Virus record (IMG/VR): IMGVR_UViG_3300045988_170943
Span: 352,001 to 416,000 of that record
DNA length: 64,000 nucleotides
Direction: 5' to 3' (one strand)
Source: a virus
Shown here: positions 74 to 50,070 of the stretch, piece after piece
Layout: each line of letters starts with the position of its first letter
Numbering within the stretch: the stretch's first letter is position 1
Notes under the pieces: generated by a model
What the model was told of the DNA's origin: nothing
What the model saw: the letters and a program-made list of their open reading frames with translations, nothing else
Databases searched by the model: none
Translations under genes and position numbers: made by a program

Positions 74-74
74 C

Positions 75-8193: not shown

Positions 8194-8206
8194 AGAGTCA
8201 CGCCTT

Positions 8207-8582: not shown

Positions 8583-8789
8583 CTATCCAACCGGGGTGCC
8601 GCCAGTGAGTGATGAAACTGGCGGCACCCCGGCTTCCTGCATATGCTCATGCCAATACCACATTAGGTGGCTACCCCTATCCCAGTGTGTCCATACGTTC
8701 TATCTCCTGTAGCAGTCGATACACTATGAGGTAGCACCTGCCATAACCGATGCGGTACCCCATCACGGCGCCCTACCCTGAGGAGAATC

Positions 8790-13300: not shown

Positions 13301-13448
13301 AATACCAGTAGGAGTAAGGTTAACATAATAATGGTGAACTACAGTGGAATAGGCAGATACAGAACCTATGTCGCGCCTCCACACTAAGAGGACAGACTGG
13401 GATGACAGCATGTGGTGAAACCTTGTACAGGGTGGACGGAGAATACGG

Positions 13449-14537
13449 ATGGCAGATAGAAACAGTGGTAGCGACCCGAAGTTGGAACTCTACAAGCGGT
13501 ACCGGCCCAGCAGGTGGGATGAACTCGTTGGGCAGCAAAAGGTTGCTCACAGTATCCAGGCGGCACTAGCCGCAAATCGGGTCCCTACTGCCTATGGTTT
13601 CTTTGGCCCGCGTGGATGCGGTAAGACTAGCGCCGCATTCATCTTGGCGAAGTCCCTCAACTGCCTCAACATACAGGACGGCCAGAACCCTTGTAATGAG
13701 TGTGACGTGTGCCAGGCTATTGACGACCGCTCCCAGCCGGGCGTCCAGTACATCAGCATGGCGAACCATGGCAGTGTTGACCATATCCGGGAACTTATGC
13801 GTGACTCCAGTCAGGCGACCTACATCAACCGGGCTGTCATCATCATGGACGAGGTGCACAACATCAGCCGCAGCGCATTTGACTCGATGCTGACTACGAT
13901 AGAGGATGAGCACACTCCAGCCCTTATGATCTTCTGCTCCACTGAAGAGGACAAGATCCCCGACACTATCATCTCCCGGCTTCAGGCCCGCACCTTCCGG
14001 CTCGTGAACAGTGATGACATGATTGGTCTCGTATCCCGAATTCTGGACGAGGAGGATGTGTCTGTCAGTGACGAGGCCCTGCTGGAAGTGATTCAGCGTG
14101 GTCGCGGGTCTGTGCGTGACACCTTGTCTGTGTTGGAGGGCCTGATCGTTGGCGGGGACCTGTTGGAGCGTCCTGCCGGGCTGGGGATCCTGGAGGCGTT
14201 GGCTGCCCTGGACGTGCCTGGGTGCTTGAAGGCTGTGAAGGAAGGGTCGGATGCGGGCTACAGTGGACGAACTATGGCTGAGGGTTTGTTCTCGGACCTC
14301 GTGAGCGTCATACAGGCGGTTTCTGGTGTTCGAGGCGTCGTACCTCCAGTGCGGGATGTTCAGGGCTTCTATGACGCCATGGGCGGGTTGCGTGGCCTGT
14401 TCGCGGTGGAGCGCGAGGTGGGGGACGCTATCAATCGTATGTCCATTGGGGCGGACTCTCTGATCCTGTTCCAGATTGCTCTTTTCAACGCTTTGGATAA
14501 GTTGAGGGACATCAGAGATGGTGTAGGCAAGAAGTAG
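13449..14537 (+). CDS. DnaX-like (Pol III gamma/tau family) AAA+ clamp-loader subunit
   Basis: YRPSRWDELVGQ, P-loop GPRGCGKTS, zinc module C..C..C, sensor SRLQARTFRL, and a GS.RD motif. Confidence 0.7.
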   Translation: MADRNSGSDPKLELYKRYRPSRWDELVGQQKVAHSIQAALAANRVPTAYGFFGPRGCGKTSAAFILAKSLNCLNIQDGQNPCNECDVCQAIDDRSQPGVQYISMANHGSVDHIRELMRDSSQATYINRAVIIMDEVHNISRSAFDSMLTTIEDEHTPALMIFCSTEEDKIPDTIISRLQARTFRLVNSDDMIGLVSRILDEEDVSVSDEALLEVIQRGRGSVRDTLSVLEGLIVGGDLLERPAGLGILEALAALDVPGCLKAVKEGSDAGYSGRTMAEGLFSDLVSVIQAVSGVRGVVPPVRDVQGFYDAMGGLRGLFAVEREVGDAINRMSIGADSLILFQIALFNALDKLRDIRDGVGKK

Positions 14538-22220: not shown

Positions 22221-22287
22221 GTTGGGCGGTTTAGTGTAGTGTGCGCCCTGTCTTGGCGTGCTGGCTTGGAGGTTTGTGGTGTCTGAG

Positions 22288-25089: not shown

Positions 25090-26619
25090 CTAGGTTGGAG
25101 ATCCTCTAGAATCTAGGGTTTCCCTCACCATCATCAGCGTCGCCTCGGTTTTTCTTTCCGAGGTACCAGTGTGTCCCTGGATTCCACTCAGGGCAGTGAC
25201 CGGTTTCGACTGTCGCGTAACAGTCGAACTTCGCTCTAGCGCCCTCTGGCGAAGCAGAGAACGCATTCTATCACGGTTTCTCGTGCTTGAGATAGCACGC
25301 AAGGCAATCTCTCTAGATGCCGAGATGTCACGATCCAGTGAGAAACCACAGGTAGTGCAGGTACCGACCCTACTCTTCGAGTTGTTCGATACCTTACCAC
25401 CGCAGCGAGAGCAGGTCTTTGAGGTGTTCTTGGCGCTCACCTTGGTTACTTTAATCCCGTAGCGCTTAGCAGTTTTCTCTATCCTGTGCTGTATCTCAGC
25501 ATGAGGCCACCTACCACCCAAAGCGTCAAGCCAGGACAGGTTCTCCAGAGACAGATGAGCATCGCTCTTATTAGCGATTTCCACTACCTGGCTGGCGATA
25601 CACTGACTGATCTCATGCTTTATCCTGGTAGCCTTAGCACCGACTCGCTTCGCCTCAGTCCTGAGAATCTGAGCACGCTGGGCTCGGTTGTATCTCTCAC
25701 AGAGGTCCGCTCGTTCGTACAGATGAGCAGATAAATCACGACGTTTCTTCTCTGCCCTAACTAGAGAACCGAGCCACCTCTTGTAACTAACGTAATACGG
25801 AGCAGACCTGTACTTAGCCTCAGGATCTATGACGGTAGTGACGAACGGCTCTACCTTACCCAGGTCAACGCCTACAATCTTGTTGGTGTCTCGCTGATGC
25901 ACCTTGCGCTCGATAGCGATGTCAAAGACAACCTGGCCCTTGTCGTTCAGTCTGATAGTTGGGCGACATACCTTACCATCACCAAAGCGTGACTCATTAT
26001 CTGGAAGTCTGAAGTAGAGTCTAGTAAGACCGTTACTTGGCGTCTTGACCTGAACGATGACACTCAACGGATCGCTGTCGTCTCGAACTGCCTTAGGTGC
26101 GAAGTAGGTGTCACACACAGCCAGGTTCAGTTTGGCGTTCACTCCAGGTAGAGACGCCTTCCTCTCGCCTTTGACGTGATAGCGCCTCAGGTGAGCGCGG
26201 ATCATTCCACTGGTCGGCTGCGGAGCATCAGGATAAGCGACCTTGTAGCAGGAGAGGATCTTTTCTGGCTTGGTCTCCTTAGGGTGAGTGTTCATTACCT
26301 GAAACAGGCCAACTGAGACAGCATAAGACTCTAGAGCGCCAACTATATTGGTGATCAGCATCTCATTCATGTTGTGCTTCTGAAACTCAAAGTCGTAACG
26401 ACTAAGGCGTTTACGACCCCAGGAGTTCAGAGAACCGGTCGGCCTGCCACCCCGTAGAACTTTCACTGCCAGGTCATGAAACTCTGAACCGGCAAGCACC
26501 TCCTGCTCAGCCTGAGCCATCCAAGCAACCATCTGAGCCAGATCAGCACTCACTGAGTCAGCGTCAACTCCATCGTCAGTGGTGAACCTGTGCCTAGTCA
26601 CAGCGTCATAGTACTTCAC
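25090..26619 (-). CDS. tnpB: TnpB (IS605 OrfB family) second, divergent copy
   Basis: VGVDLG (RuvC-I) and SKTCSRCGG...CTTCGFSLDRDISASREIALRA (RuvC-III plus zinc finger). Confidence 0.8.
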   Translation of the reverse strand: MKYYDAVTRHRFTTDDGVDADSVSADLAQMVAWMAQAEQEVLAGSEFHDLAVKVLRGGRPTGSLNSWGRKRLSRYDFEFQKHNMNEMLITNIVGALESYAVSVGLFQVMNTHPKETKPEKILSCYKVAYPDAPQPTSGMIRAHLRRYHVKGERKASLPGVNAKLNLAVCDTYFAPKAVRDDSDPLSVIVQVKTPSNGLTRLYFRLPDNESRFGDGKVCRPTIRLNDKGQVVFDIAIERKVHQRDTNKIVGVDLGKVEPFVTTVIDPEAKYRSAPYYVSYKRWLGSLVRAEKKRRDLSAHLYERADLCERYNRAQRAQILRTEAKRVGAKATRIKHEISQCIASQVVEIANKSDAHLSLENLSWLDALGGRWPHAEIQHRIEKTAKRYGIKVTKVSAKNTSKTCSRCGGKVSNNSKSRVGTCTTCGFSLDRDISASREIALRAISSTRNRDRMRSLLRQRALERSSTVTRQSKPVTALSGIQGHTGTSERKTEATLMMVRETLDSRGSPT

Positions 26620-35238: not shown

Positions 35239-36147
35239 ATGAACATAGATAATCCAGTGACGCTATCTGTCCTGTTCACACTTTTTGTCGGCCTCATCGT
35301 GTATGACCGTCTCATCCCTAAATCAGGTAGACGGTTCTCTGACGGCACTGGTGACGCTTCCAGGCGCAATCCCTTCCTGAAGTTCGTCACTGCTATGGGT
35401 GACGACATCTACGCGGCCATGCCAGCCTCTCTTGACAAGGGAAGGGAACAGAGACAGTACCCCAGGATCGAGTCGCTACTGAAACGATCCGGCAACCCGT
35501 GGGGGCTGACCCCCAGGGAGTTCGTGTCACTGAAGTTCGTTGCCGGAATCCTCGGGTTTGTCATCAGTTGGCCACTATGGCTGGGACTGAACGCCATGAC
35601 CGGACTCCCATGGTGGGTCGTCGTCATTGTCGTACCAGCGTTCTGCTACATGATCCCCACCATCAAGCACACTGAACTGGCGAAGACACGAGACCTGGAG
35701 TTCAAACGACAGTTGCCAGAGGCCCTGGACCTCATCACCATTACCCTGTCCGGTGGTAGTACTCTATCCCAGGCAATCCGTGACGTCATCCCCACTATGC
35801 AGAAAGGTATCCTCAAGGGTGAGTTCATCAACATGGTGCGTATCATGGACGCTGGAGGTACACTCAAGGAGGCTCTAGACGAGTTCGCCAACCGCGCCCC
35901 CAGTGATGGGATCCTGACATTCGTGCGTTCCGTCCAGTCGGCCGCCGAGGTCAACGCGCCCATGAACGAGATTCTTGAGGCCCGAGCCGAGGCGTCTAGG
36001 CAGGAGTTCTTCGCCCTCGTGCATGAGAAGGCAGCCCAGTTGGAGTCCAAGATCTGGATCATCCTGTCGCCAACCATGCTACCGGCCCTCATCATCATCT
36101 CTGTGGCCCCGTCCGTCAACGCTATCATCGAGATGCTAGGACAGTAA
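35239..36147 (+). CDS. TadC/GspF-domain inner-membrane platform protein
   Basis: N-terminal TM, cytoplasmic GspF-like domain (LDLITITLSGGSTLSQAIRDV...), C-terminal TMs. Confidence 0.5.
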   Translation: MNIDNPVTLSVLFTLFVGLIVYDRLIPKSGRRFSDGTGDASRRNPFLKFVTAMGDDIYAAMPASLDKGREQRQYPRIESLLKRSGNPWGLTPREFVSLKFVAGILGFVISWPLWLGLNAMTGLPWWVVVIVVPAFCYMIPTIKHTELAKTRDLEFKRQLPEALDLITITLSGGSTLSQAIRDVIPTMQKGILKGEFINMVRIMDAGGTLKEALDEFANRAPSDGILTFVRSVQSAAEVNAPMNEILEARAEASRQEFFALVHEKAAQLESKIWIILSPTMLPALIIISVAPSVNAIIEMLGQ

Positions 36148-36216
36148 GACACCACGCCAACCCCACAAAGACTGCAACAACCAGCACAAGGCTACACCAC
36201 TACCACAGGAGCCCAG

Positions 36217-37935
36217 TTGTCACTCATCAGCACACCACTCACCAGCACCAGCAGGCCGGATGCTGGGCGAGCCTCCATGCCTGGCCGACAGCGCATCACC
36301 CGCCCCACAGGAATGGGCCCAAAGCCAGCATTCTTCGCCCAATCTTCAGCGGACATGGCAGACGCCAGCGACCGCATGTTCAGTGACCTCATAGCCGACG
36401 ACGAACTCACCACCAGCCACAACCCCACACAGTACACGACCGGCAACGACCCATACTCCCGCACTCTGGACGCATTTGACAACCGACGCAAGCAAATCAT
36501 CCAGGAAGACCCCTCAGGCGGCATCAAGACCTACTGGTTCATGACAACACGCGACCTCATGGACGCCCCAGCAGACTTCTTTGACAAGTATGCGCCAGCA
36601 GTCGAGGCCGGGATCACATTCGTGCGCAACCGACTCACCGACACCGGCCAGTCCGACCTCGTGAGACAGGCACAGGACCACCCCACAGACGAGAGCAAAC
36701 AGAACCAAGCATTCTACGCAGTGCACTCGCTCGCCTCCGAGTCCCTGGCGAACTCCTCCTGGAGAAACATCCACCGGTCCATCGTCATCAGCCTCATCAT
36801 CGCAGAAGTCATCGGTTTCGGTGTCCTTGACCCACTATGGCGCGACAGCACAGTCACCGAGATCATGTGCAACGGCCCCAAGGACGTGCAGGTCGAGATC
36901 GCCGGTGAGGTCTACAAGGTGCCCTGCCTGACATTCCGGGACAGCAACCACCTCAACGACCTCATTGAACGCCTGTACCGCTCCATTGGTAAAGTCCTGT
37001 CCCAGTCCACCCCTAGAGTCAAGGGGCGCCTACACGACAAGTCCAGAATGTTCGCCGTCCACACATCAGTAGCCCCCGACGGCCCGAACCTCAACATCAG
37101 GCGACACCCCGAAGGTTTCTGGACCCCTGAGGCCATGGTGCATCGCGGGGCGGCCAGCCAGGAAATGATGACCTACATTGGGAACCTCATCCACAAGGGC
37201 GCATCCTGTTTCGTCGTCGGATCCACGTCGTCCGGTAAGACATCCATGTTGAACGCCTTCACCGGGTTCTACGCACCGAACGCCAGGATCCTCACCCTTG
37301 AGGACAACCTGGAGATGAAACCCAACCCGAAAAAGTTCCTCGCTGCCGCCATGGAATGCCGTATCCCCAGCACGACAGACAGTGCGACAGCAGGAACCAG
37401 CATGCGTGACCTCGTGCACGCAGCCATGCAGATGCGACCCAACGCCATCATCGTGGGTGAGGTCACTGACAGCGCCGCCTATGACCTCTGCCAAGCCCTC
37501 AACACCGGCCACATGGGCATGAGCACGTTCCACGCTAACTCATCCCAACTATCCATCACCCGTATCTGCTCTCTCGTATCCCAGTCCGGCCTAACCACCA
37601 TCGAGGGAGCCACAGACCTCGTTGCGGCCGCCTTCGACTTCATCGTCAACGTCCGCCACTTCCCTGTGGACGGCTCCCGCCGCATCGTATCCGTCGATGA
37701 GGTCGGTATGGAACCCATCGAGATCAACGGCCGCCTCACCCTCCCAGTACGCCAGTTGTGGAGGTTCGTTGACGAAGGCACCAACCACGAAGGGAAAGTC
37801 ACAGGCCACTGGGAGCAGGTTGGAGACATCTCCCCTGAGCGCAGACACGCGAAGATGCTTGACCTGGAACGGGACCTGACATGGCCACAGTTGAAGGACC
37901 TGAGCAGCCTACCTGAAGGAGCACTAGAAGCATGA
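36217..37935 (+). CDS. CpaF/TadA-type secretion ATPase (VirB11/GspE superfamily)
   Basis: Walker A GSTSSGKTS, ILTLEDNLEM, an Asp box, a His box (TGHMGMSTFHANS) and IIVGEV. TTG start with RBS aggag. Gln/Pro-rich N-terminal extension. Confidence 0.7.
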   Translation: MSLISTPLTSTSRPDAGRASMPGRQRITRPTGMGPKPAFFAQSSADMADASDRMFSDLIADDELTTSHNPTQYTTGNDPYSRTLDAFDNRRKQIIQEDPSGGIKTYWFMTTRDLMDAPADFFDKYAPAVEAGITFVRNRLTDTGQSDLVRQAQDHPTDESKQNQAFYAVHSLASESLANSSWRNIHRSIVISLIIAEVIGFGVLDPLWRDSTVTEIMCNGPKDVQVEIAGEVYKVPCLTFRDSNHLNDLIERLYRSIGKVLSQSTPRVKGRLHDKSRMFAVHTSVAPDGPNLNIRRHPEGFWTPEAMVHRGAASQEMMTYIGNLIHKGASCFVVGSTSSGKTSMLNAFTGFYAPNARILTLEDNLEMKPNPKKFLAAAMECRIPSTTDSATAGTSMRDLVHAAMQMRPNAIIVGEVTDSAAYDLCQALNTGHMGMSTFHANSSQLSITRICSLVSQSGLTTIEGATDLVAAAFDFIVNVRHFPVDGSRRIVSVDEVGMEPIEINGRLTLPVRQLWRFVDEGTNHEGKVTGHWEQVGDISPERRHAKMLDLERDLTWPQLKDLSSLPEGALEA

Positions 37936-38891
37936 CCATCTCAACTATCTTCCCCTACCTGGTGGCGTTGGGCCTGACCACCTCCATCGGCATCATCGGG
38001 CTCATCGTCTATCTCGTGTGGCGCACCAGCCACAACGATGAAGAGTACGACTCCCAGTTGGCTGAACTTCTCAGCGACGACGTGGAAAGCGAACTGGGCA
38101 ACTCCTCCACGAACGTCACCTACTGGTCCAGATGGTGTGACTACTGGTCCCAGACGCTCCGTGGTGCGGGCGTGGACCGGTACTCCGTTGACGCCACCAC
38201 AGCGGGCCGAGATGTCACCGTACTTCTGGCTACGATTGGTGTGATTGTCGGCGTCATCGCCAACAACATAATCCTGGGGGTGATCGCCACCGTCGTGGCT
38301 GGTACGGGGCTCTCCATGCTCATGAGGTACCGCTACAACAACAAGAACGAGGATCTGAACTTGCAGATCCCTGGGTTCCTGTACTCCCTGAAGGCAAACA
38401 TCCAGGCTGCGGACACGAACGAGCGGGCACTGCTGAAAATCATCCCGTCCATCCCTTCCCCCTTGTATGATGACCTGAAGGTTGCTGAGTCAGTTCTCCA
38501 GTCTGGTGACACGTTCAAGGAGGCGATGGAGACAATGAGCGCGAAAACCACGTCCAGGGATCTTCAGTTCCTCTGCGCGTGCATGATCCAGGCGTCCGCC
38601 AGCGGCTCTAGCATGGTCACCCAGATTGACAGCATCCAAAGGGTCCTTGAATCTCGTCGTAAAGTATCCGATGAGATCAACCGGTCTGTGAAAGCGGTAC
38701 AGCCAGCCATCTGGCTCGCCTCCGTCATTATCCCAGCCCTGTTCCTGGGCTCTTACTTCAGTGACTCTGCCGCACAGGGTTTCTGGTTCGTAACCCCCAT
38801 GTCATGGGCGGCGCTAGCCTTAACGGCCATCCTGTACGCTATTGGCCTGGTGATGACGAAGCGGCAGGTTGACAAGATCAGAAACATGTGA
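37932..38891 (+). CDS. TadB/GspF-domain inner-membrane platform protein (second copy)
   Basis: N-terminal TMs, central GspF-like domain, C-terminal TMs. Start overlaps the CpaF stop. Confidence 0.5.
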   Translation: MTISTIFPYLVALGLTTSIGIIGLIVYLVWRTSHNDEEYDSQLAELLSDDVESELGNSSTNVTYWSRWCDYWSQTLRGAGVDRYSVDATTAGRDVTVLLATIGVIVGVIANNIILGVIATVVAGTGLSMLMRYRYNNKNEDLNLQIPGFLYSLKANIQAADTNERALLKIIPSIPSPLYDDLKVAESVLQSGDTFKEAMETMSAKTTSRDLQFLCACMIQASASGSSMVTQIDSIQRVLESRRKVSDEINRSVKAVQPAIWLASVIIPALFLGSYFSDSAAQGFWFVTPMSWAALALTAILYAIGLVMTKRQVDKIRNM

Positions 38892-39086
38892 CCTACCCCC
38901 AGCCATCAACATGTGTTGAACCTGAGTGGTTAATACAAACACCTCAGCCGTTGCTCTTACAGACAAGGCTGGGGTGTTTCTGTTGCCTCTTTGTAGGCAG
39001 AATAAGGGCGTCGATATGTGTGCGCACGACATCACGTGCACAACTCTACAGACATGCGAACTTCACACTAAAGAACGGACACAACT

Positions 39087-39704
39087 ATGACAACAGGTGT
39101 TGGCAAAAACAGGGTAGGGACCCACAGGAGACTGGAGTTCACCGTGGGACAGAAAAGCATCTTCAACACCAACATGAACATCAAGCACTACATGCAGAAA
39201 GCAAAACTGGTTGACACTATCCGCGCCATGGGAGCCAAAGCCGGTGCAGAAGCACACCCAGACAGAGAGACGGTAGAAGCCAGGCTTGATGCGTTACGAC
39301 AGGAGCGACGCCTCGCTGCACGTAAGACCAGCACCATGAAGAAAATGATGAAACGAGGCGCCAGTCAGGAGGAGATCGACAAGGAGATGCAGGAGATTAC
39401 CGAGTCCCTGTCGCCCTCCAAGCCCAGTAGTCGCATCCAGGCAACCCCACTATTCACCACATTCAAGATAACCATGACCGTCCACCCGCCGACACGCAGA
39501 CGACTGGACCCACCCAACCTGTCCCCCACCCTCAAAGCCCTCGTAGACGGGCTCACAGACGCCTGCTGGTGGGACGACGACGACTACCGGCACCTTGTTG
39601 AGACCTCATTCCGTTACGGCGGCCTATCTGGTACCCCCGGAGAGTGGAGAATCGTCCTGGACGTGGAAGAAGTAGACCCCAGCGGATACGTCACCAGCAA
39701 CTAG
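39087..39704 (+). CDS. RusA-like Holliday-junction resolvase domain protein
   Basis: C-terminal half aligns with RusA: RRRLDPPNL..LKALVDGLTDACWWDDDDY versus [29 protein letters not shown]. Confidence 0.45.
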   Translation: MTTGVGKNRVGTHRRLEFTVGQKSIFNTNMNIKHYMQKAKLVDTIRAMGAKAGAEAHPDRETVEARLDALRQERRLAARKTSTMKKMMKRGASQEEIDKEMQEITESLSPSKPSSRIQATPLFTTFKITMTVHPPTRRRLDPPNLSPTLKALVDGLTDACWWDDDDYRHLVETSFRYGGLSGTPGEWRIVLDVEEVDPSGYVTSN

Positions 39705-39857
39705 AGTCAAAACACCTACCCCAAGAAACAGGGATGCAACCCACCCACACTTCCAAGGCAGGGGATAGATTATCGACTGCTGCCAGACGGAAGGATATTG
39801 AAAACCTATGAGAAACTACCACGATTCGCTTACTAGATGTGACGAAAGAAGGTCGCC

Positions 39858-40313
39858 ATGGGTGGAATAGTCGTCGCAAACTTCACGAACATGTTCAAGC
39901 GACGCATCCTTCTGTACTCGCTCGGTGATCTTAGGCTCAACGCCCCCATATCCCTGAAGAAGGTCGGATACATCATCTTCTTCATTGTCATATACACGGC
40001 ACCCATCATCTACTTCAACGGGATCGTGCTCAAACCATGGTTCCTGTTACTAGTGTTTGTGCCGCCGCTCCTCCTAGGTAACTACGCGGCCGAACCGATC
40101 TGGGCAGGAAGAAACCTCCTGGACTTCACCACAGTGTACATAAAGTTCGCCACCTCCCCAAAGTACTGGTGCGACCTGAAAGCATGCGACGACCTCATGG
40201 TCAACCAGAAGGACAAGAGTGGTACCAGTGAGCCAGTCCACTACGAGATCTGGGTAAGCCGACGTCGCGAGATCGCTGAACTGAAAGCACTCTACGCCGA
40301 AGAGAACCTGTAA
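39858..40313 (+). CDS. small membrane protein
   Basis: 151 aa with two hydrophobic segments. Confidence 0.3.
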   Translation: MGGIVVANFTNMFKRRILLYSLGDLRLNAPISLKKVGYIIFFIVIYTAPIIYFNGIVLKPWFLLLVFVPPLLLGNYAAEPIWAGRNLLDFTTVYIKFATSPKYWCDLKACDDLMVNQKDKSGTSEPVHYEIWVSRRREIAELKALYAEENL

Positions 40314-40380
40314 TAGCCTCCAGGGGTCTCAAAACTTTCATCGCACACTACCACACTGACTGCATGGAGCAAACACTTAC

Positions 40381-41586
40381 ATGGCATACAAGTATAACTC
40401 ATCACTGTTTCTGGGCGAGACGCTTGGGGGAAAACCCAGCCCAGTGTTCTTCGATCCGCACACATGCATCCTGAATAACCGACCGCCCACGACAGTCATC
40501 ACAGGCGGCCCTGGCTCCGGAAAGACCTACATGCTGTTGAACCTGGTGGCCCAGTCTGCCATCCTCGGCAAGGCGTGCGTCTTTTTGGACCCTAAAGGTG
40601 ACGCCCTCGGTCTTCAGGCGCTTTCCAAGGATCTCGGCAACCTGAAGTTCTGGAACCTCGCCGGACGAGGACAGAAAGGCATCCTAGACCCGTTCCAGAT
40701 GCCCATTGATCATGAGAGCCAGCGGCTCGAACTCATCATCAATACTGTGGAGATGTTCGTCGGAAACATCACTGAAGACCAGAGAACAAGGCTCGGAGCC
40801 ATCGTTGAAGACGTCATGCGCGAGCAGGTACCATCCCTGCTGCGTGTCGTTGAAGTCATGATCATGCACCGAGAGAGAGACGTCCGTAACCTTGGGAACC
40901 GGCTGAGCCTGATCTCAAAGATGAAGTTCGCCAACTTGTGCTTCGCCCCTGGCCGTAAGGGATTCAAGCCGCTCAGCCTGGACAGTGGTGTCACCATCGT
41001 CACCATGCCCGGCCTGAAACTCACAGTAGACAGCAAGGACGGCATGTCGGGTGAGGAGCGAATCTCAGCCACCATATTCTTCCTTCTGACCAGCATGATC
41101 AACGGGATGCTCTACTCCTCTGACGTGTCTATGCGCAAGATCCTGATCATCGACGAGGCGTGGGCAATCGCTGGTAACTCTGCTGGGTCCAAGGTCATTA
41201 AGGCGGTAGCAAAACTGGGGCGATCCAAGAACATGGCTGTCATACTCGCCAGCCAGAACCAGAGTGACCTCATGGGGGAGGACATTGATACCACCATATC
41301 CACACGATTCGCGTTCGCTACCGACTACAAGGAGGCCGCGAACATCACAAAGGCTATGCGACTCCCCACAGGGCAAGGGTTCGAACAAATCCTGACCTCT
41401 CTGAGCCCGGGCGAGTGCCTGATGGAGGAGAGTACCAGCGATGATGGGCGCAGTCGTTACTCCACAATGAAAGCCGTTGTCATCTCCCCCAGGTGGGACG
41501 AGGCTTTCAGAACCAACCCTGAAGACGTGCGCGCAAGAGAAAAGAAGAGACGCAAACAGGCGGCAGCAAAAAAGAATCCTACCTAA
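40381..41586 (+). CDS. P-loop NTPase, VirB4/HerA (DUF87)-like
   Basis: Walker A GGPGSGKTY and Walker B ILIIDEAWAI, about 400 aa. Confidence 0.45.
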   Translation: MAYKYNSSLFLGETLGGKPSPVFFDPHTCILNNRPPTTVITGGPGSGKTYMLLNLVAQSAILGKACVFLDPKGDALGLQALSKDLGNLKFWNLAGRGQKGILDPFQMPIDHESQRLELIINTVEMFVGNITEDQRTRLGAIVEDVMREQVPSLLRVVEVMIMHRERDVRNLGNRLSLISKMKFANLCFAPGRKGFKPLSLDSGVTIVTMPGLKLTVDSKDGMSGEERISATIFFLLTSMINGMLYSSDVSMRKILIIDEAWAIAGNSAGSKVIKAVAKLGRSKNMAVILASQNQSDLMGEDIDTTISTRFAFATDYKEAANITKAMRLPTGQGFEQILTSLSPGECLMEESTSDDGRSRYSTMKAVVISPRWDEAFRTNPEDVRAREKKRRKQAAAKKNPT

Positions 41587-41612
41587 AAATAGGATCGACA
41601 TAACTGCTACAC

Positions 41613-41652
41613 AATCCTGAGGAATCCCCGATATTCCTCAGGATTTTATTTC
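41613..41652 (+). terminator. rho-independent terminator
   Basis: 13-bp stem aatcctgaggaat/attcctcaggatt with loop ccccgat, followed by ttttattt. Confidence 0.6.
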
Positions 41653-41677
41653 GCCTGACACAGAAGGAAGCGCCCCG

Positions 41678-42523
41678 ATGGCCGCAATCAGCAAAGTGAA
41701 CAGAAGGAAGAAGACTAACCGTTTTCTCACTGGAATGGTAGTCGTCGTACTAGCGCTCATACTGGTCGGCTCATCCATGATCATGCGTAAGTTCTTCGAG
41801 ACAGAAACCTACTACACGTTGAAACAGGACATCCCAGCACACACCCAGATCACCCCGGACATGCTGGAGCCAAAACAAGCACCCACCGGGTCTATCCCCT
41901 TCGAAAATTTAGTCACCCTCGCAAAAGTCCAATCAGACGACCCTAAGGATGCAGTATTCTCCTCAGTTGCCCTCAAGGCCGGGGACATGGTGCCAAATTC
42001 AGTCGTTACCACCGGAAGTGAAGACCTCAAAAAGCAAATCCCTGAGGGCTGGGTCATCACCAACTTCAGTGTCAGCGCAGACAACGCCGTCGGCGGGCGC
42101 ATCAAGAACGGTTCATACTTTGACATCCTTGTCGCCACATCAGATGGCGCATTCTACCCGTTCCTCAACGTGAAGGCCCTCGACACCACTGTTGACCTGT
42201 CCAACGCCTCCTCATCTGACGCTGTTGATACTGAGGAGGCGCACGCCGGGCAGACCACGCAGTACACGGTTGGGCTCACACCGGAGAACGCATCCAAACT
42301 CCAGTCCATCATGAGCCAGTACAACGGCAACGTCAAACTGGTTCTGTCCAATGGTGTCAGCGACCCTGCCACTCACCAGCCGACAGGATCATTCGCCGGT
42401 AACGCCCCCGCCCCACTGTCAGTCAGCCCTGACACCGACAATGGCGGCCAGGCCCCAGCATCCCAGCAGCAGGAAAAGCCCTCCGCGTCAGGGAATCAAG
42501 ACCAGCGGGCCGAGAACAAGTAA
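41678..42523 (+). CDS. CpaB/RcpC-like pilus assembly protein (N-terminal TM plus SAF-like domain)
   Basis: Membrane anchor after a K/R-rich start. Domain with GGRIKNGSYFDILVATSDG, like the CpaB beta-clip. Confidence 0.5.
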   Translation: MAAISKVNRRKKTNRFLTGMVVVVLALILVGSSMIMRKFFETETYYTLKQDIPAHTQITPDMLEPKQAPTGSIPFENLVTLAKVQSDDPKDAVFSSVALKAGDMVPNSVVTTGSEDLKKQIPEGWVITNFSVSADNAVGGRIKNGSYFDILVATSDGAFYPFLNVKALDTTVDLSNASSSDAVDTEEAHAGQTTQYTVGLTPENASKLQSIMSQYNGNVKLVLSNGVSDPATHQPTGSFAGNAPAPLSVSPDTDNGGQAPASQQQEKPSASGNQDQRAENK

Positions 42524-42547
42524 CTAGGGATCTCCTGAGTCGATATA

Positions 42548-42597
42548 GTAAGGGTACCGAAAGTTGCAAAACAATCGGTACCCTTACACTTTTCTAC
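42548..42597 (+). terminator. hairpin terminator
   Basis: 12-bp stem gtaagggtaccg/cggtacccttac, followed by acttttct. Confidence 0.45.
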
Positions 42598-42649
42598 CAC
42601 CAAATGTCAACACCCCAATAGTGTTGATCGTTGAAAGCAAGGGATACTA

Positions 42650-44077
42650 TTGGCTACTAGTATTATGCGCCCAAGAGCCATGTTTGTTGGACCAGAGCAG
42701 GTCTCAAACGTCATCAGGGACCACGCATGCCCCGACTGGGACTGGTACCGGGTAGACACACTACAGGACGTTATAGCGGGATCACGAGACGGCGACGACT
42801 ACTCCGACATCAACATGATCATTCTTGTTGACAGAATGTTCGAGAAGGAGTTCAACCCGGAACGCGAGTTCGAGACCATCGTCGCCTCATTCGGCACCAG
42901 CAAAATCGTAACTATCCTCCAATACAACAGCAGTCTCCAGTACAACATTGAGAACTCAGTGGCCGCCTATGCGAAAGACAAGGGGATCGGCGATGTCTCC
43001 ATGAACTTCGTTGGAGCGGACTACGAATCGGCCATACCCCGCATCATCCACAACTACGTCAACGACCCCTATGCTGACGACTGGAACAAGGCAGTCATCA
43101 GCAACCGTGTCACCATCGACGAGAACGGCCAGGTTGTCAGCATCGCAGCCGACGAAACTACCGGTGAGGAGTGGGACGACGGCAGCAACTACTTCGAGGA
43201 GCAGGTAGACGACACCCAGTACCTCGGCCAGATCATCGCCGTCACCTCCAGCAAAGGCGGGTCAGGTAAGTCCACCGTCGCCGTCACTCTAGCCTCCTAC
43301 CTGGCACACTCGTCCATGAGGTCAGTGGAGACCGGGGCGGTTGACAGGCCCCTGAAAGTCGCTATCCTCGACCTAGACATTGAAGACGGCCAGATCGGGT
43401 TCATTGCGGGCAGCATCCAGCCGACCATCCTGAACATGCGCACCCGGGGTATCTCGCAAGCCGCGTTTGAGGACACTGTTATCAAGAGCAAGCGGCTTGG
43501 TGTTGACCTCATCCTAGCCCCCAAGCGGCCACGCTCCAGTGCTGACACGCCACCTCAGTTCTACCGCGAGGTGATCGACTTCCTCAAGCAGCGGTACGAT
43601 TACGTGATTCTGGACACTTCTGTACGCTACATGGATCCCCTTCTGGAGCAGGTGGCGTACCCCATGGCTGACGCCATAGTTTTTGTTACCGACATTGTGA
43701 TCCAGTCCGTGATGTCTATGACACGGTGGGTGCAGGAGGTGACCTGGCCGGTAGAGAAGAACGGCATGGGGATCCCGGCATCCAAGATCGGTCTCGTGGT
43801 CAATAAGGCCATCGCTGATGTGCACATGAACGGGACTCGTATCGCTAAAGCCGCTCCGGGCGTCGCCGTCGTTTCTGTGATCCCCAATAATGCGAAACTG
43901 ATGGCTCACGCCGCTAACCTTCAGGCAATGCAGGTTGTTTTGAATCATCCAGAGATCCGCAAGTCATACAAGCGAATAGCAGATGCCATCATGGGTAAAC
44001 GTTACGACAAGCACCTAGTGGATACCACCAAGGGCGAACGCTACAAGTTAAGTGACGACTTCAAGGTCACCACATAA
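42650..44077 (+). CDS. CpaE/TadZ-like ParA/MinD-family ATPase with N-terminal receiver-like domain
   Basis: Deviant Walker A IAVTSSKGGSGKSTVAV with a ParA-like fold. The N-terminal ~180 aa resemble a pseudo-receiver. TTG start is uncertain. Confidence 0.55.
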   Translation: MATSIMRPRAMFVGPEQVSNVIRDHACPDWDWYRVDTLQDVIAGSRDGDDYSDINMIILVDRMFEKEFNPEREFETIVASFGTSKIVTILQYNSSLQYNIENSVAAYAKDKGIGDVSMNFVGADYESAIPRIIHNYVNDPYADDWNKAVISNRVTIDENGQVVSIAADETTGEEWDDGSNYFEEQVDDTQYLGQIIAVTSSKGGSGKSTVAVTLASYLAHSSMRSVETGAVDRPLKVAILDLDIEDGQIGFIAGSIQPTILNMRTRGISQAAFEDTVIKSKRLGVDLILAPKRPRSSADTPPQFYREVIDFLKQRYDYVILDTSVRYMDPLLEQVAYPMADAIVFVTDIVIQSVMSMTRWVQEVTWPVEKNGMGIPASKIGLVVNKAIADVHMNGTRIAKAAPGVAVVSVIPNNAKLMAHAANLQAMQVVLNHPEIRKSYKRIADAIMGKRYDKHLVDTTKGERYKLSDDFKVTT

Positions 44078-44523: not shown

Positions 44524-47385
44524 CTATGCGATAGTGATCTTGTCCTTACCCAGTAGACCCTTGAAGTATACGAGGTCGGCGGCGTGCCTCATACCCTCCT
44601 CCACAGTGCACCTCCCCTGCTCTACAGCATTAACGATCTGCCGCTCAATAGTCAGGTCATTGTCGCGCATATAGTCCTCAATGCCGTGGTCGTCGCCCGC
44701 GCCGATCATTTCCTGTACTTCACGAGTAATCTCAAGGACAGAGAACAGGGCGAACCGGCTCTTACCGTCAACAGTCTTCAAGAGTTCCTGGTTAGCGAGC
44801 CCACGAATGTTTGTCTGAAGCGTTGACAGTATACGCCTCTGATCCTCACCATCATACAGCGACTTGATACGGTTCAACGTGACGGCAGGCGTGTTTGAGT
44901 GGATCGTCGTCATCGTGAGGTGCCCTGACTCGGCTGCACGAAGAAACTCGTCAACCTCTTCCTGGTCTCGAACCTCACCCACCAGAATCGTGTCCGGGTC
45001 CTCACGCATAGCAGCCTTCAGCGCGTTCGAGAACGAGTGTGTGTCACTGCCCACCTCACGTGGAGTCAGCAAAGTAATGCCATCGTCAGGGTAGATGTAC
45101 TCGATGGGCTTCTCAATAGTGACGATCCTCTGGTTACTGTTCTTCTGAAGGTTACGGATCAGAGATGCGAACGTTGTCGTGTTATGGGTTGGCACATAGT
45201 CCCTTGTGCACAGGAACAGGTGTGACGGGGAGTCCACCTCAAGGCACCAGAACTCCGACTGGGAGGCGTGCACCTCCTCCATGTACTCGATCTCAACAAT
45301 GTTCCCCCCGTCTATTGTGGCGCTTGCGTGCGAGCCTCTAAAGTCATCGTTCAGGTAATCCCGCACACCAGTAATGCTCAAACGGTCACCCATAGTCTCA
45401 GTGGCGTGCATCCCCAGTGAGCGAGCCACACGAGCCACACCCTCCCTGTGCTCATCATCCGGGATGCTGACTGTCGTGTCGCTGGAGTCTGCTGGCCCCT
45501 GAACCAGTAGTGCCCCCAACAGCATCAGCCGATCCGACACGCTCCAGGAGACCGCCTCAGCAAGAACCTCACGTACCCCATCCTGCCCCTCTGTAAGGCC
45601 CGTGACAGCGGCCGCAAGCGCCACTGGCAACACGGTAGGGGCGGGGGGCTCAGGTACCTCCACAGGCCCCCTGAGTCCCCTGATAACGGGGTTGTAGCCG
45701 AACCTCTGGCACACCTCGAACATTTGCTGCGTCGTCACCGTGCGCGGCCCCTCAACGCGGCCCATCAGTGATTCCTGGGAGTGCAACTCCAGCAGGTGGG
45801 CGCACGACTTACCGACCAGGATCCCGTCACCAGTGTCACGGAACGTCCGAGAAAGAACACCAGCCACCATGTCTGCCATGTCGCCCGTGAGCCCAGCCCG
45901 GCGGGTGATCTCGTGGGCAGGCAGCCGTTCACCGTCTCTGGCAGCAACAACCATGTCCAGGAGGGCAGCAACAGACCTCTTCGGCAGGATGATACGGCAG
46001 TAATTGTCACAAGGGAACTCCGCGACCCACAGGTGGTTCCCCCCAGCCAGGACAGTCTCACTAAGGCCACGGAACTTGATGTGGAAGAACCTCTCCGACC
46101 CTCCGGGGTGCTTTCTCACCACTTTGCATGTGCTGCCGTTCTCGTCATACACGATGTCACCGACCTGCACGTCCCCAAGCCTGATGAACCCGCCAGGATA
46201 GTTCGGGCCAGGTATCAACGTGTCCTCGTGAAGATCCTTACCGGAGCCAGTAATACCCCCCAGGATGATGCCGCCCTTACCGAACTTCGTCCACTCAATC
46301 AGGCGCGGGTCCACGTTCAGTTCCTCAGGAGACGGGATGACATCACTGATGATACGGAACGTCATAGCATTGTGCCCAAGAGTGCGCGCAACATTCAACC
46401 TGGTGCGCCTCCCCGCGTGCATACTGGAACGCAACTCATAAGAGGTGTCCAGTTCCCAGTGCTCATGATAGTCAGTCTGGTTATCCTTGGTGACAATGTC
46501 CATGAAGATACGGCTCGTGACATCATAGGGGATAGGCCCGAACTTCTCGTCGCGCACAATGTCTCCATTGACCCTGTACGCGATACGCTTGTCTGGGTCG
46601 ATATGGACGTCAGAAGCACCCATGTCGATACCTTGTGCGATTACGGCGTCGATGTCGAAGCCTTTAAACGGATCCTCTTCCGCCTCCTCCTCTTCAATGC
46701 CGATCCCGTCTATGACGTCAAGAACCCCATCCAATGGGTCATCGTCATAATCGTCGTCATAGTCCTCATCATCGTACCCGGCGTAAGGGTCCTCATACTC
46801 TGGATACTCATCATCCATAGGGGAGAACGGGTCCTCATCCTCCCCGTCAACACTCCCCTCACTGGTGTCGCCCGCGTCCATGTTGTCACTGTCAGCAGCA
46901 ATGTCTGCACTGACGGCAACATAGTCTGCGTCACCATAGAGATCACCGTCACCACTACTTGCAGACAGGCCGCTAGCAGCCCCCAGGGCCTCAGGAGCAC
47001 TACCTGCACTGTACTCAGAAACACCAAAATCTGTGACCGGTTCATCACCGTCAGCACCCAAACTAGCGTTCACAGGATCATCATAGTCGCCGTCGAGCAC
47101 GCCATCATACTCAACACCTTCGTCGCTATCGCCCCACAGGCGCTCACTGTACCCATTATCTGGAACCTGGGTGGGCGCGTTCATATAGTCGGCGTCAACA
47201 GGTGTCGTTACCACGTCATCCTCGCCCGGCTCATCATAGCCGCCAGGAATAGTAGTCTCCTCCATGTGCGGCTGCGTGACCGGGGCGGCATGACCGGGCA
47301 CATACTCATCATCCCCGTCACCCTGAAGGAACGGGTTGTAGTCCTCATCCCAGGCCTCAGCAGTAAGGTCAATACGGTCAGACAT
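44524..47385 (-). CDS. PilT/PilU-like secretion ATPase with acidic N-terminal extension, interrupted in its P-loop by a class 3 intein
   Basis: Exteins carry ASDVHIDP...RVNGDI (PilT N-terminus), GGITGSGK joined to TTTFASLI (Walker A restored), RIVTIEKPIEY, EDPDTILVGEVRD and AAESGHLTMTTIHSN. An Asp/Glu-rich N-terminal region of about 250 aa precedes these. Confidence 0.7.
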   Translation of the reverse strand: MSDRIDLTAEAWDEDYNPFLQGDGDDEYVPGHAAPVTQPHMEETTIPGGYDEPGEDDVVTTPVDADYMNAPTQVPDNGYSERLWGDSDEGVEYDGVLDGDYDDPVNASLGADGDEPVTDFGVSEYSAGSAPEALGAASGLSASSGDGDLYGDADYVAVSADIAADSDNMDAGDTSEGSVDGEDEDPFSPMDDEYPEYEDPYAGYDDEDYDDDYDDDPLDGVLDVIDGIGIEEEEAEEDPFKGFDIDAVIAQGIDMGASDVHIDPDKRIAYRVNGDIVRDEKFGPIPYDVTSRIFMDIVTKDNQTDYHEHWELDTSYELRSSMHAGRRTRLNVARTLGHNAMTFRIISDVIPSPEELNVDPRLIEWTKFGKGGIILGGITGSGKDLHEDTLIPGPNYPGGFIRLGDVQVGDIVYDENGSTCKVVRKHPGGSERFFHIKFRGLSETVLAGGNHLWVAEFPCDNYCRIILPKRSVAALLDMVVAARDGERLPAHEITRRAGLTGDMADMVAGVLSRTFRDTGDGILVGKSCAHLLELHSQESLMGRVEGPRTVTTQQMFEVCQRFGYNPVIRGLRGPVEVPEPPAPTVLPVALAAAVTGLTEGQDGVREVLAEAVSWSVSDRLMLLGALLVQGPADSSDTTVSIPDDEHREGVARVARSLGMHATETMGDRLSITGVRDYLNDDFRGSHASATIDGGNIVEIEYMEEVHASQSEFWCLEVDSPSHLFLCTRDYVPTHNTTTFASLIRNLQKNSNQRIVTIEKPIEYIYPDDGITLLTPREVGSDTHSFSNALKAAMREDPDTILVGEVRDQEEVDEFLRAAESGHLTMTTIHSNTPAVTLNRIKSLYDGEDQRRILSTLQTNIRGLANQELLKTVDGKSRFALFSVLEITREVQEMIGAGDDHGIEDYMRDNDLTIERQIVNAVEQGRCTVEEGMRHAADLVYFKGLLGKDKITIA
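45181..46236 (-). other. class 3 intein (352 aa, WCT signature, Asp at position 1, large central insert)
   Basis: Block A DLHEDTLI (GAT codon verified on the reverse complement); block B GGNHLW (Trp at B12); block F EFWCLEVDSPSHLFLC (Cys at F4); block G YVPTHN with +1 Thr (Thr at G5). A central ~200 aa may be a degenerate endonuclease. Confidence 0.65.
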
Positions 47386-47658
47386 GCGATGTTACTCTCT
47401 TCCAAGAGGGGTGGTAGCGGTAGCCAGGGAACGCGAACGACGGTACATCCAGCAACAGAATCATACCAATAAAACGTAAATCTCTGGTCTGAAGGAATAT
47501 CCCGGGACGAAGCCACAACTACACTAACACGCGAGAAACAGGCCAGCCAGTACCCCGCACAGCAGAGCCCACACACGTATTCACCTCCCAGAGAGACCGC
47601 CCCAAAGCCTGTAATCGCAAAAGTATGGTAAGCACCACGTTAGGGCACTGTCCCTCCC

Positions 47659-50070
47659 CTACACGGCGACCTGAGTCAGTTCCAAAGGCTTACCATCCAT
47701 ACCCATAATGCGCTCAACCTTCACCGCATCCCTGAGGAAGGCCGCCCCCGACTTGAAGAACCCCCTGTCCCGAGGATTAGGTTCACGCTTCGCCCGGTTC
47801 TCAAACTCTACAGCCACAGACTCCACACACTCACTGATGAACCTGCCCAAAGAGTCAGACACCACCAGGTAGCGGACCTCCCCATACGCGAACCACCCCG
47901 ACCAGGCATAGTTTCTGAGCACCTTCTTCAACGCGCTACCCTGTTTACGAGTCAACTCGATCTCATATGCGATAGACCTAGCCCGACCATTCTTGTCCCG
48001 CACATCATAACGCATAATAAGGTCTGGCTGATGGTACGACGAGTACTTATCCTTCTCATCATCCTTCGCGCACGGTACCCACAGCATCGGATACTTCTCC
48101 ATGATGCCGTCACGTAACCCACTCGACAAGTCCTGGTATGCGTCAAGCATCTGCTCACGATACCTCACCAGACGTTCATCTCTCGACAAGGTGACACCAG
48201 AGCAGTTGCGCTCCATCCACCGCTCATTCACAAAGAACGCGGGCATAAACCCATGCAACTTACACTCGCGGGCAACAGTGTACGAAACCATAGCATTATG
48301 TGCGCCACGCTCAGTCATACGCGCACCCTTACGGGCACTACGCACCTTAATGTTGTCAAAATCCACGCCAGACCTGTTATCCCGGAGCACCTGAAGACCC
48401 TTGCTCTTCAACCGGTAAATACTCTTACCACCAAGGAACACGGTATCACTGATAATCAGGCCCATCTCCGCCAAACCAAGAAGACGCTTCGGCGCAGACT
48501 TCGGAGCCTTCAAACCCAGAATCGTCTGCACACTCCTAGCAGTAGCGGAACCAGACACAGCAATCAGTTCCAGCACCAACAAATCCTTCTGAGTGATCTT
48601 TGACCGATGATACTTCTTTCTCGGATTCCGCTTCTTCCTACCTGAGACAGTCTCGCCACGACGCTGCCTGTGCCGCAGATCCGCCTCCTGAGCCTTACTA
48701 CGCACAGGGAACTTCACATCAGGAGCGAACTCCTGCCGCATGTACTCGCCAGTGTCAGAAGGAAGCGGCTGCAACCCCTGACCAGGCTTCTTCGGCGGAG
48801 GACGGTACCCCTTCATAAACGGCTTATTCTCAGGATTCAGGATATGCGGGTCAGTGACACCAACCAGATTCGGGTCAACTGGTTTCTTAGGTCGAGGCCG
48901 CTTAGGCTTCTGATACTGAACCACATACTTGCGATCCTCCAACACGTTCACATCATCAGTACCCAGACCAGCAGGCTCAGGACGCGACTCGCCACCACTG
49001 AGAGACAAGCCCCCGCCAGTAGACACACCGCCGGATCGCCCCCCGTCGTTTACTCCACTACGAGATTGCGCACCATTAGCATCTCCTCGACCACTACTGT
49101 CACGACGGAACCCACCCGAACCAAGACCAGCACCCACAGTGAGACCAGCAGTTACAGCAGGTTCCTGTGGGCTTCCCTGAACGCCACCACGACCATCACC
49201 CGCGCCACTGCCCGCAGCGCGCACACGACCCGAACCTTGCACCTCACCATCAGGAGAAACGGGCCGCCTATCAGACGTTGAGCGGCCACCCGAGGCTACA
49301 CTACCAGTGGGACGACGGCCTTCCCCCAACTGCGGGCGACCACCGCCCTGAACCCCACCTACTGGCCTCTCATGATGTATAGCAGGCCTCGAAGCGCCTT
49401 CGCCCCCACCCGAGGTGCCCACGCCAGCACCATTACCAGCAGTCCCATGAGGAGCAGTGCGACGCTCAGGGTAAGAGTGACGAGAACTTCCCCCGTCCCC
49501 TACAACACCACCCTGAGCCCTCACGGGGCGGGCACCGCCAGCAGGAGATGCAGGGCGAGAGCCACCTCCCATGCCAGAGGTAACACCCTGCCTGACAACA
49601 GGTCCACCACCAGCCATACGACTTCCGCCACCCTGTGACTGTCGGACACCCATTGGGGCGACACCACCATGCGGTAGATCGCGGCCACGCACACTGTCAC
49701 CCTTCACCACACCACGGGCGCTGTCGTTACCCCCAGGGTTGGACCTACCAAGAGACCCCACACCCCTAGGATGACCGCCTCCCCCACGCGACGGCACCAC
49801 ACCAACACCAGCCCCAGTAGGTCGCCCAGCGCCTCTTGCGTCACCCTGTGGCCGGGTGGGGGAAGCCTCGTCGTCACTGAGCAGGTCACTCATCATGTCA
49901 TCGAGAAGATCATGCTCCACCTCAGCAGGCACGCCAACAGTACTACGTGCCGGGCCGCCATTAGTGCCAGAGACAGTCGGGCGCATGGGGCGGCTCACCC
50001 GGCTACGGTCACGGAAACTATTACGTGCGCCATCACGGCCAGGCTCATCAGTCACAAGCACACCCTCCAA
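47659..50070 (-). CDS. DNA-binding protein with ~430-aa Gly/Arg/Pro/Ser-rich disordered N-terminus and a C-terminal wHTH plus replication-relaxation-like domain
   Basis: C-terminal ~370 aa are well-composed (LLVLELIAVSGSATARSVQTIL...). The N-terminal low-complexity part could be over-called. Confidence 0.35.
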   Translation of the reverse strand: MEGVLVTDEPGRDGARNSFRDRSRVSRPMRPTVSGTNGGPARSTVGVPAEVEHDLLDDMMSDLLSDDEASPTRPQGDARGAGRPTGAGVGVVPSRGGGGHPRGVGSLGRSNPGGNDSARGVVKGDSVRGRDLPHGGVAPMGVRQSQGGGSRMAGGGPVVRQGVTSGMGGGSRPASPAGGARPVRAQGGVVGDGGSSRHSYPERRTAPHGTAGNGAGVGTSGGGEGASRPAIHHERPVGGVQGGGRPQLGEGRRPTGSVASGGRSTSDRRPVSPDGEVQGSGRVRAAGSGAGDGRGGVQGSPQEPAVTAGLTVGAGLGSGGFRRDSSGRGDANGAQSRSGVNDGGRSGGVSTGGGLSLSGGESRPEPAGLGTDDVNVLEDRKYVVQYQKPKRPRPKKPVDPNLVGVTDPHILNPENKPFMKGYRPPPKKPGQGLQPLPSDTGEYMRQEFAPDVKFPVRSKAQEADLRHRQRRGETVSGRKKRNPRKKYHRSKITQKDLLVLELIAVSGSATARSVQTILGLKAPKSAPKRLLGLAEMGLIISDTVFLGGKSIYRLKSKGLQVLRDNRSGVDFDNIKVRSARKGARMTERGAHNAMVSYTVARECKLHGFMPAFFVNERWMERNCSGVTLSRDERLVRYREQMLDAYQDLSSGLRDGIMEKYPMLWVPCAKDDEKDKYSSYHQPDLIMRYDVRDKNGRARSIAYEIELTRKQGSALKKVLRNYAWSGWFAYGEVRYLVVSDSLGRFISECVESVAVEFENRAKREPNPRDRGFFKSGAAFLRDAVKVERIMGMDGKPLELTQVAV

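Follow-up and report, generated by a model that had tools for sequence, protein, structure and literature searches.

A very likely class 3 intein with aspartate at position 1 in the P-loop of a PilT-like ATPase from a very large phage-like element

Class 3 inteins have been reported as a monophyletic group. The residue at position 1 is usually not Ser, Thr or Cys, with exceptions allowed, and position +1 is occupied by Ser or Thr, rarely by Cys. The group was defined by a Trp-Cys-Thr (WCT) triplet, and mutagenesis of the DnaB intein of mycobacteriophage Bethlehem (MP-Be) identified Cys F4, His B10 and Trp B12 as indispensable (PMC2807308). In this intein the exchanges C320A and C320S abolished both splicing and N-terminal cleavage, and Pro1 could be replaced by Ala, Ser or Cys with reduced splicing (PMC2807308). 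An association of class 3 inteins with phages has been proposed (PMC3196547). Here we analyzed a stretch of 64,000 nucleotides of the IMG/VR virus record IMGVR_UViG_3300045988_170943 (positions 352,001 to 416,000 of that record), referred to as the window. It contains a gene for a PilT-like ATPase of the T2SSE family which is interrupted by an insert of 352 codons starting with Asp. We regard this insert as very likely to be a class 3 intein located at the classic P-loop site of the ATPase and carried by a very large phage-like element.

The precursor gene (44524..47385, minus strand) is an open reading frame (ORF) of 953 amino acids (aa) with matches to Pfam T2SSE and NCBIfam pilT_fam. The N-terminus of the ATPase carries an acidic extension of approximately 235 aa. 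The N-extein (46237..47385, minus strand; residues 1-383) ends in the first half of the Walker A motif with GGITGSGK. It is followed by the intein (45181..46236, minus strand; residues 384-735), which comprises 1056 nt or 352 aa from Asp1 to Asn352. The C-extein (44524..45180, minus strand; residues 736-953 and the stop codon) starts with TTTFASLI, and its first residue, Thr+1 (45180..45178), completes GSGK-TTT. An earlier reading of the letters alone (here called the sequence-only reading) had placed the in-frame insert at exactly these positions and had noted that its removal restores GSGKTTT across the divided Walker A motif.

With the insert in place the Pfam T2SSE model scored 95 bits and matched only the C-terminal part of the protein (profile positions 156-367). 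After in silico deletion of the insert the score rose to 125 bits with a contiguous match from profile position 11 to 367, so that the spliced product passed the cut-off of 24.9 bits. The pilT_fam model covered positions 2-339 of 343 on the spliced sequence. The previous description of the insertion site as the P-loop of a PilT-like ATPase was right with regard to the site. The spliced core, however, reached 268.8 bits with the PilT/PilU subfamily model (TIGR01420), below the curated cut-off of 319.1 bits, and therefore PilT-like T2SSE-family ATPase is the accurate name.

When the spliced sequence was compared with seven intein-less homologues (P0006-P0012), the junction aligned without gaps, with zero gap openings over 352 residues in the case of P0006. 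At the junction the intein-less homologues read GSGKST[ST][FL] or GTGKTTT[FL]. The insert is consequently in frame, located at a conserved site, and its exact removal restores the host protein, as is characteristic of an intein. Shifted splice boundaries were considered and rejected, since only the joining of GSGK and TTTFAS reproduced the ten-residue motif of the intein-less homologues. The position after the invariant Lys of Walker A and before the next Thr is named a "classic" site for inteins in P-loops in one report (PMC5050341). At 60.6%, the G+C content of the intein exceeded that of the exteins (54.7%) and of the whole window (56.1%), consistent with an origin elsewhere or with an amino-acid composition of its own.

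All residues of the class 3 signature were found in the insert. Block A (DLHEDTLIPGPNY; 46198..46236, minus strand) starts with Asp1, and the GAT codon claimed for it by the sequence-only reading is present at 46236..46234. Its residue-for-residue counterpart was ALRLDT/ALALDT, both in the Ala1 homologues and in the Mycobacterium chimaera (Mch) and Mycobacterium smegmatis (Msm) DnaB-1 inteins. Block B (ETVLAGGNHLWVAEF; 46015..46065, minus strand) contains His68 (B10) and Trp70 (B12) and aligned with HQW of the structures 6rix and 6bs8; the tetrapeptide Asn67-His68-Leu69-Trp70 is read from 46038..46027 of the minus strand. Blocks F and G (EFWCLEVDSPSHLFLCTRDYVPTHN; 45181..45255, minus strand) aligned with RCVEVDNPxHLYLAG..VPTHN of class 3 structures. 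They include Trp330-Cys331 of the WCLEVD motif (45249..45244, minus strand) and end with Thr350-His351-Asn352 (45189..45181, minus strand), directly before Thr+1. In total, Cys331 (F4), Asp335, His339, Phe341, Thr350 (G5), His351 (G6) and Asn352 (G7) were identified in these two blocks. The insert hence combines Trp B12 and His B10 with Cys F4, Thr G5-His-Asn and Thr+1, and position 1 is not Ser, Thr or Cys. The block alignment and the profile comparison that had been suggested earlier were carried out, and the signature residues aligned with those of known class 3 inteins.

A search with the whole protein revealed five proteins with an insert at the identical GK/[ST]TT site (the slash marks the insertion point), here named P0001-P0005. 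P0001 was 94% identical and represents 206 member sequences, and P0002 was 52% identical. The inserts of P0001 and P0002 start with DLHEDT and carry Asp1, and those of P0003, P0004 and P0005 start with ALRLDT or ALFKEE and carry Ala1. The former suggestion that Asp had replaced a Cys at position 1 needs to be corrected accordingly: in this lineage the replaced residue is Ala. The window insert and the five related inserts were alignable over their full length. Invariant among the six sequences were L2, P9, N67, H68, W70, C331, V334, D335, S336, T350, H351 and N352.

The profile of this six-sequence alignment matched MchDnaB-1 (6rix, E 3e-19) and MsmDnaB-1 (6bs8, E 3.5e-19) from end to end. Position 1 was in register with Ala1, HxW with HQW, the F4 Cys with the catalytic Cys, and THN with THN. 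Already the insert alone matched both structures (6rix, E 1.2e-5; 6bs8, E 1.2e-4). The complete triplet and the profile matches to class 3 DnaB inteins bear out the assignment proposed from the letters alone. Shared descent with this group is further indicated by the best solved relatives, which are class 3 inteins, and by a rough neighbour-joining tree in which the window intein is nested among them. The insert alone had no significant match in Pfam and NCBIfam, and this reflects the weak detection of the insert and of its Asp1 relative P0002 by these models, not absent homology. Additionally, a word-indexed protein search with the insert alone and DNA searches of phage and plasmid records gave no match. 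A bacterial intein-like (BIL) domain was rejected, as the insert is located at a conserved catalytic-motif site, ends with His-Asn followed by Thr, and has true inteins as its nearest relatives; the BIL structure 2lwy matched the profile with an E value of only 0.014.

In an AlphaFold model based on the six-sequence alignment the predicted local distance difference test score (pLDDT) was 82-92 in both splicing lobes, with a mean of 73 for the whole model. The top Foldseek matches in the PDB were all inteins, namely PI-SceI, TliVMA and MchDnaB-1, with target template modelling (TM) scores of 0.77-0.80. The top 30 PDB matches were inteins or HINT domains. A HINT fold built from the N- and C-terminal splicing lobes is thus predicted for the insert. 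The sequence-only reading had named an insert other than Hint-fold as one outcome that would speak against it, and the matches obtained with the profile and with the predicted fold were inteins.

Following experimentally studied class 3 inteins, splicing would be expected to proceed in this order. The thiol of Cys331 in block F would attack the peptide bond between Lys(-1) and Asp1, aided by His68 and Trp70 of block B, and a branched thioester would be formed. The N-extein would then be transferred to the hydroxyl of Thr+1. Cyclization of Asn352, assisted by His351 and with Thr350 in a positioning role, would free the intein, and an O-N shift would ligate the exteins. The rebuilt GSGKTTT would give an ATPase able to bind ATP. 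Asp would be tolerated at position 1 because the side chain of residue 1 is not involved in this chemistry. The intein itself may be kept only because failed splicing would kill the ATPase.

The codon-by-codon comparison of the window with P0001 gave a ratio of nonsynonymous to synonymous substitution rates (dN/dS) of 0.07 for the N-terminal splicing lobe. For the C-terminal lobe the ratio was 0, with 0 replacements and 6 synonymous changes in 41 codons. The ATPase exteins had values of 0 to 0.03 and the intein middle of 0.24. These ratios point to strong purifying selection on the splicing lobes. With a dN/dS of 0.24-0.31 the intein middle is not evolving neutrally either, and the folding of the precursor is one possible reason.

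The intein of P0002 was 46% identical and the synonymous sites were saturated. Nevertheless Asp1, His68, Trp70, Cys331 and Thr-His-Asn were kept, with synonymous changes from GAT to GAC for Asp1 and from CAT to CAC for His351. P0142 represents a third, more distant lineage with Asp1 and the extein motif TTTFASLI. The identity of the splicing domain to the window was 92% for P0001, 61% for P0002 and 48% for P0142, and all catalytic residues were kept in each of them. An ATPase with a P-loop split by 352 residues should work only after splicing, so that the constraint on both exteins would imply constraint on splicing as well. The intein is real, and we infer from these comparisons that it is probably splicing-active.

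To place Asp1 among class 3 inteins, 1.84 billion representative proteins were searched exhaustively with the profile, which yielded 15,842 matches at E <= 0.001. In the best 150 of the 15,842 proteins, 236 inteins were delimited with hidden Markov models (HMMs) of the N- and C-terminal lobes, and the WCT triplet was present in 224 of them. The first residue was determined in the 148 inteins from these 150 proteins which had exact boundaries and a complete triplet. Ala was found in 93 of the 148 and Asp, the second commonest residue, in 13, followed by Pro (11), Leu (8), Gly and Arg (4 each), Ser and Asn (3 each), Glu, Gln, His and Met (2 each) and Lys (1); this sample is skewed to relatives of the query, three of the six profile sequences carry Asp1, and the percentages do not represent a census. 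A single column adds very little to the survey scores of 150-470 bits. After exclusion of the two close relatives of the window, Asp1 was still present in 11 of 146 inteins. The +1 residue of the 148 inteins was Thr in 81, Ser in 63 and Cys in 4. Among P0087-P0233, many of the best matches were proteins of 1100-2200 aa, each of them interrupted by two or three class 3 inteins, with several inteins located at GSGK/ P-loops and at DPK/ or GE/ sites.

Asp1 was found in the T2SSE/VirB11-like ATPases P0121, P0125, P0142, P0175, P0185, P0213 and P0233 and in P0218, a coupling protein of the TraG/VirD4 type. It was also present in P0205, to which no family was assigned, and in P0117 and P0176, which are both longer than 2000 aa. 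In the rough tree of the splicing lobes the window intein was placed within a clade with the N-terminal signature xLHKDT, in which x was Ala, Asp, Asn, Ser, Gln, Glu or Leu. The seven T2SSE/VirB11-like ATPases and P0218 were located inside this clade, and P0205, P0117 and P0176 outside. Overall, Asp1 occurred in at least five separate places of the tree, and parsimony required approximately six changes between Asp and other residues. The sequence-only reading had considered Asp at position 1 highly unusual; being second only to Ala in the sample and scattered over the tree, it is instead a recurrent and apparently tolerated first residue in this class 3 branch. Its recurrence is as expected, because the class 3 mechanism does not use residue 1. 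Ten Asp1 proteins were looked up in NCBI and UniRef and none was present there; some had cluster members with generic JGI/IMG labels only.

The centre of the intein is, according to the alignment with its relatives, a decayed LAGLIDADG endonuclease, which had been suspected before. The 450 aa intein of P0005 retains both LAGLIDADG motifs (LGAWLGDGSSD and LLRGLMDTDGSVD) and passes the Pfam models LAGLIDADG_3 and Hom_end. Compared with P0005, the segment with the first motif is deleted in the window intein. The second motif reads LLGALLVQGPAD in the window instead of LLRGLMDTDGSVD, and the catalytic Asp is lost. A vestige of the second half-domain (SDRLMLLGALLVQGPAD...VARSLGMHAT; 45352..45492, minus strand) was recognized by alignment to the LAGLIDADG_3-positive segment of P0005. 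The only Pfam match of the window intein in this region was a weak one to Hom_end (E 0.18), below the cut-off. The two motifs, each with a catalytic acidic residue, that make up a LAGLIDADG homing endonuclease are therefore not present. In the 257 aa intein of P0003 the entire endonuclease region is gone. With its endonuclease decayed, the intein would now be a fixed, immobile passenger.

Some actinophage inteins carry an antisense or out-of-frame endonuclease (bioRxiv 10.1101/2025.01.02.630785). An antisense ORF of 563 aa (45781..47472, plus strand) overlaps the ATPase/intein gene; it had no family match in Pfam, and an endonuclease of this kind was rejected. The ORF is probably an artefact of codon composition.

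Several points weigh against the proposed active class 3 intein. The dN/dS values reflect constraint on the sequence and not the splicing reaction itself, and the structure model was built on only six sequences with a mean pLDDT of 73. We found no description of an Asp1 class 3 intein in the accessible literature; a listing in InBase may exist. Furthermore, Arsp-FB24 Arth_1007 provides a natural example of a dead class 3-like intein (PMC3196547). This precedent, together with the decay of the endonuclease, would be in line with a dead intein in which Asp1 or other changes block splicing, leaving a P-loop-disrupted pseudogene or an ATP-independent protein. We consider this very unlikely. In Arsp-FB24 Arth_1007 both His B10 and Cys F4 were lost and the exteins were no more than stubs, unlike in the window intein with two full-length and strongly constrained exteins (dN/dS 0-0.03). 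The splicing lobes (0.07 and 0) are more constrained than the intein middle (0.24), and all catalytic residues persist down to 48% identity of the splicing domain, from P0001 through P0002 to P0142. Additionally, the synteny of the gene is conserved on contigs of 28-394 kb, and Asp1 is found in 11 other WCT inteins of intact ATPases. That the insert splices by the class 1 or class 2 route seems extremely unlikely. Class 2 inteins likewise lack a nucleophile at position 1 (PMC2807308), but class 2 (KlbA) combines Cys+1 with Asp at F4, and the window intein has Thr+1 and Cys at F4. The complete WCT triplet, the class 3 inteins as closest solved relatives and the absence of Ser, Thr or Cys from position 1 argue against both routes.

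Instead of being merely tolerated, Asp1 could act on splicing: its carboxylate lies beside the scissile bond and Lys(-1) and might adjust or gate the reaction, for instance by way of pH, a metal ion or a salt bridge, and the intein would then be a conditional one that regulates the ATPase. The codon of Asp1 changed synonymously between lineages in which synonymous sites are saturated, with the residue itself kept, and the class 3 MsmDnaB-1 intein is a documented case of conditional splicing (PMC6195587). In the sample, Lys(-1) preceded 13 of 13 Asp1 inteins and 99 of the remaining 135 (Fisher p = 0.02, with no phylogenetic correction), an association that we treat only as a weak lead. Lys precedes most P-loop inteins anyway, and position 1 switches freely within the clade between Ala, Asp, Asn, Ser, Gln, Glu and Leu, a pattern of weak constraint. 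An active Asp1 is therefore considered unlikely, and it is a little less likely again that Asp1 has been selected and makes splicing conditional, for example on pH or a metal ion or through a salt bridge between Lys(-1) and Asp1. If this were true, a huge phage could switch on its PilT-like ATPase post-translationally, and an "Asp1" functional subclass of class 3 inteins would be defined. Compared with this, the tolerated Asp1 of a class 3 intein in the ATPase remains the reading we prefer.

A 96%-identical gene was found on three IMG/VR viral contigs of 201, 248 and 394 kb, and the same neighbours surround P0001 on its contigs of 54 and 113 kb. A scan of 185,579 species genomes revealed no relative and no cultured or species-level genome with the gene. 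Adjoining the intein gene is a Tad/type IV secretion-like cluster (35239..44077) with two T2SSF proteins, a second T2SSE ATPase, a VirB4-like AAA_10 ATPase, RcpC/CpaB and a TadZ-like ParA. On the other side an ORF of 803 aa with a long Gly/Arg-rich N-terminal half (47659..50070, minus strand) had no match in Pfam or PHROG. Relatives have a conserved counterpart of this ORF upstream of the ATPase, of 798 aa in L001 and of 787 aa in L003.

The first part of the window (1..8585) contains 13 tRNA genes and a transfer-messenger RNA (tmRNA) gene with the tag ANSDNFALAA, interspersed with ORFs. Within it a Ro60/TROVE and vWA protein is encoded (596..2197), and no Y RNA was found in the window at Rfam gathering thresholds. 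NrdD, GyrA, a RadA-like protein, an FtsK-like protein and a DNA methyltransferase are encoded as well. Two TnpB-like ORFs with a Cas12f1-like TNB domain were located at 11708..13249 and 25090..26619 (both minus strand). The former lies in the region 10101..14537, after a 498-aa fragment of DNA polymerase III alpha and before a clamp-loader gene. Only the PHP domain and the beginning of the NTPase domain are present in this fragment. The gene for the polymerase may be split or truncated. The predicted gene content is compatible with a huge phage or a phage-like megaelement, in agreement with the phage association proposed for class 3 inteins (PMC3196547).

A six-frame scan of the window with the two lobe HMMs detected one further class 3 intein (22870..23847, plus strand) of 326 aa with Gly1 (N-terminal lobe E 2e-12, C-terminal lobe E 5e-8). 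It is located in an ORF for a PD-(D/E)XK (Cas4/RecB-like) nuclease (22258..24243) at DYK/TGK and reads VVEDYK/GLALDTPIPT...NVHLWYV...TQCIQVDSPDSLYLAGRTMITTHN/TGKVKR. The full WCT triplet was present (HLW, QCIQVD, and THN followed by Thr). From its position, this intein splits what looks like the (D/E)xK motif of the nuclease. Class 3 inteins are common in Cas4/RecB-type exonucleases of actinobacteriophages (bioRxiv 10.1101/2025.01.02.630785).

The intein of the ATPase gene would add a documented class 3 intein to the Lys/Thr hotspot of P-loops and extend the hosts of the class to ATPases that huge phage-like elements encode, both PilT-like ones and others of secretion or conjugation. The natural range at position 1 would include Ala, Asp, Pro, Leu, Gly, Arg, Asn, Ser, Glu, Gln, His, Met and Lys, and such a wide range fits a mechanism with a non-catalytic residue 1. 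Protein engineers seeking class 3 inteins with relaxed junction requirements could be interested in it. The current view of the intein mechanism is left unchanged by these results.

Among the relatives, P0003-P0005 share the host family, the GK/[ST]TT site and homology over the whole length with the window intein and differ in Ala1. Like the members of the xLHKDT clade, they are all uncharacterised metagenomic sequences. Two described inteins resemble it in their hosts or sites, as far as the accessible parts of the respective reports go. The class 3 intein of Burkholderia vietnamiensis IcmO is found in a type IV secretion coupling ATPase and has Cys+1. The mycobacteriophage intein TerL1-a is a class 3 intein located exactly between the invariant Lys and Thr (PMC5222942; PMC5050341). 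The host proteins of both are different, and Asp1 is reported for neither in these parts.

The Bethlehem DnaB intein, the prototype of class 3, shares a non-nucleophilic residue 1, the WCT triplet, Thr+1 and the phage origin. The residues that matter in Bethlehem all have counterparts in the window: H68 (B10), W70 (B12), C331 (F4), F341 for the aromatic residue at F15, T350 (G5), H351 (G6), N352 (G7) and T+1. The Asp and His of block F were matched as well. In contrast, Bethlehem has Pro1 instead of Asp1 and an active LAGLIDADG endonuclease instead of a decayed one, and the insertion site and the host protein are different.

In the mycobacterial DnaB-1 inteins (6bs8; 6rix/6riy) the splicing lobes at both termini are homologous to those of the window intein, with a profile E value of 3e-19. 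The two are in register at position 1, at His-x-Trp, at the F4 Cys within xC(V/L)EVDxPxHL(Y/F)L and at VPTHN followed by Ser/Thr+1, and the predicted fold of the window intein superposes with a target TM score of up to 0.8. Furthermore, they are also inserted after the Lys of a nucleotide-binding motif, in an SVGK context (PMC7664689). However, the DnaB-1 inteins are mini-inteins of 139-145 aa with Ala1 in a replicative helicase, whereas the window intein has Asp1, a length of 352 aa with a helical insert and an endonuclease vestige, and a T2SSE-family ATPase as host.

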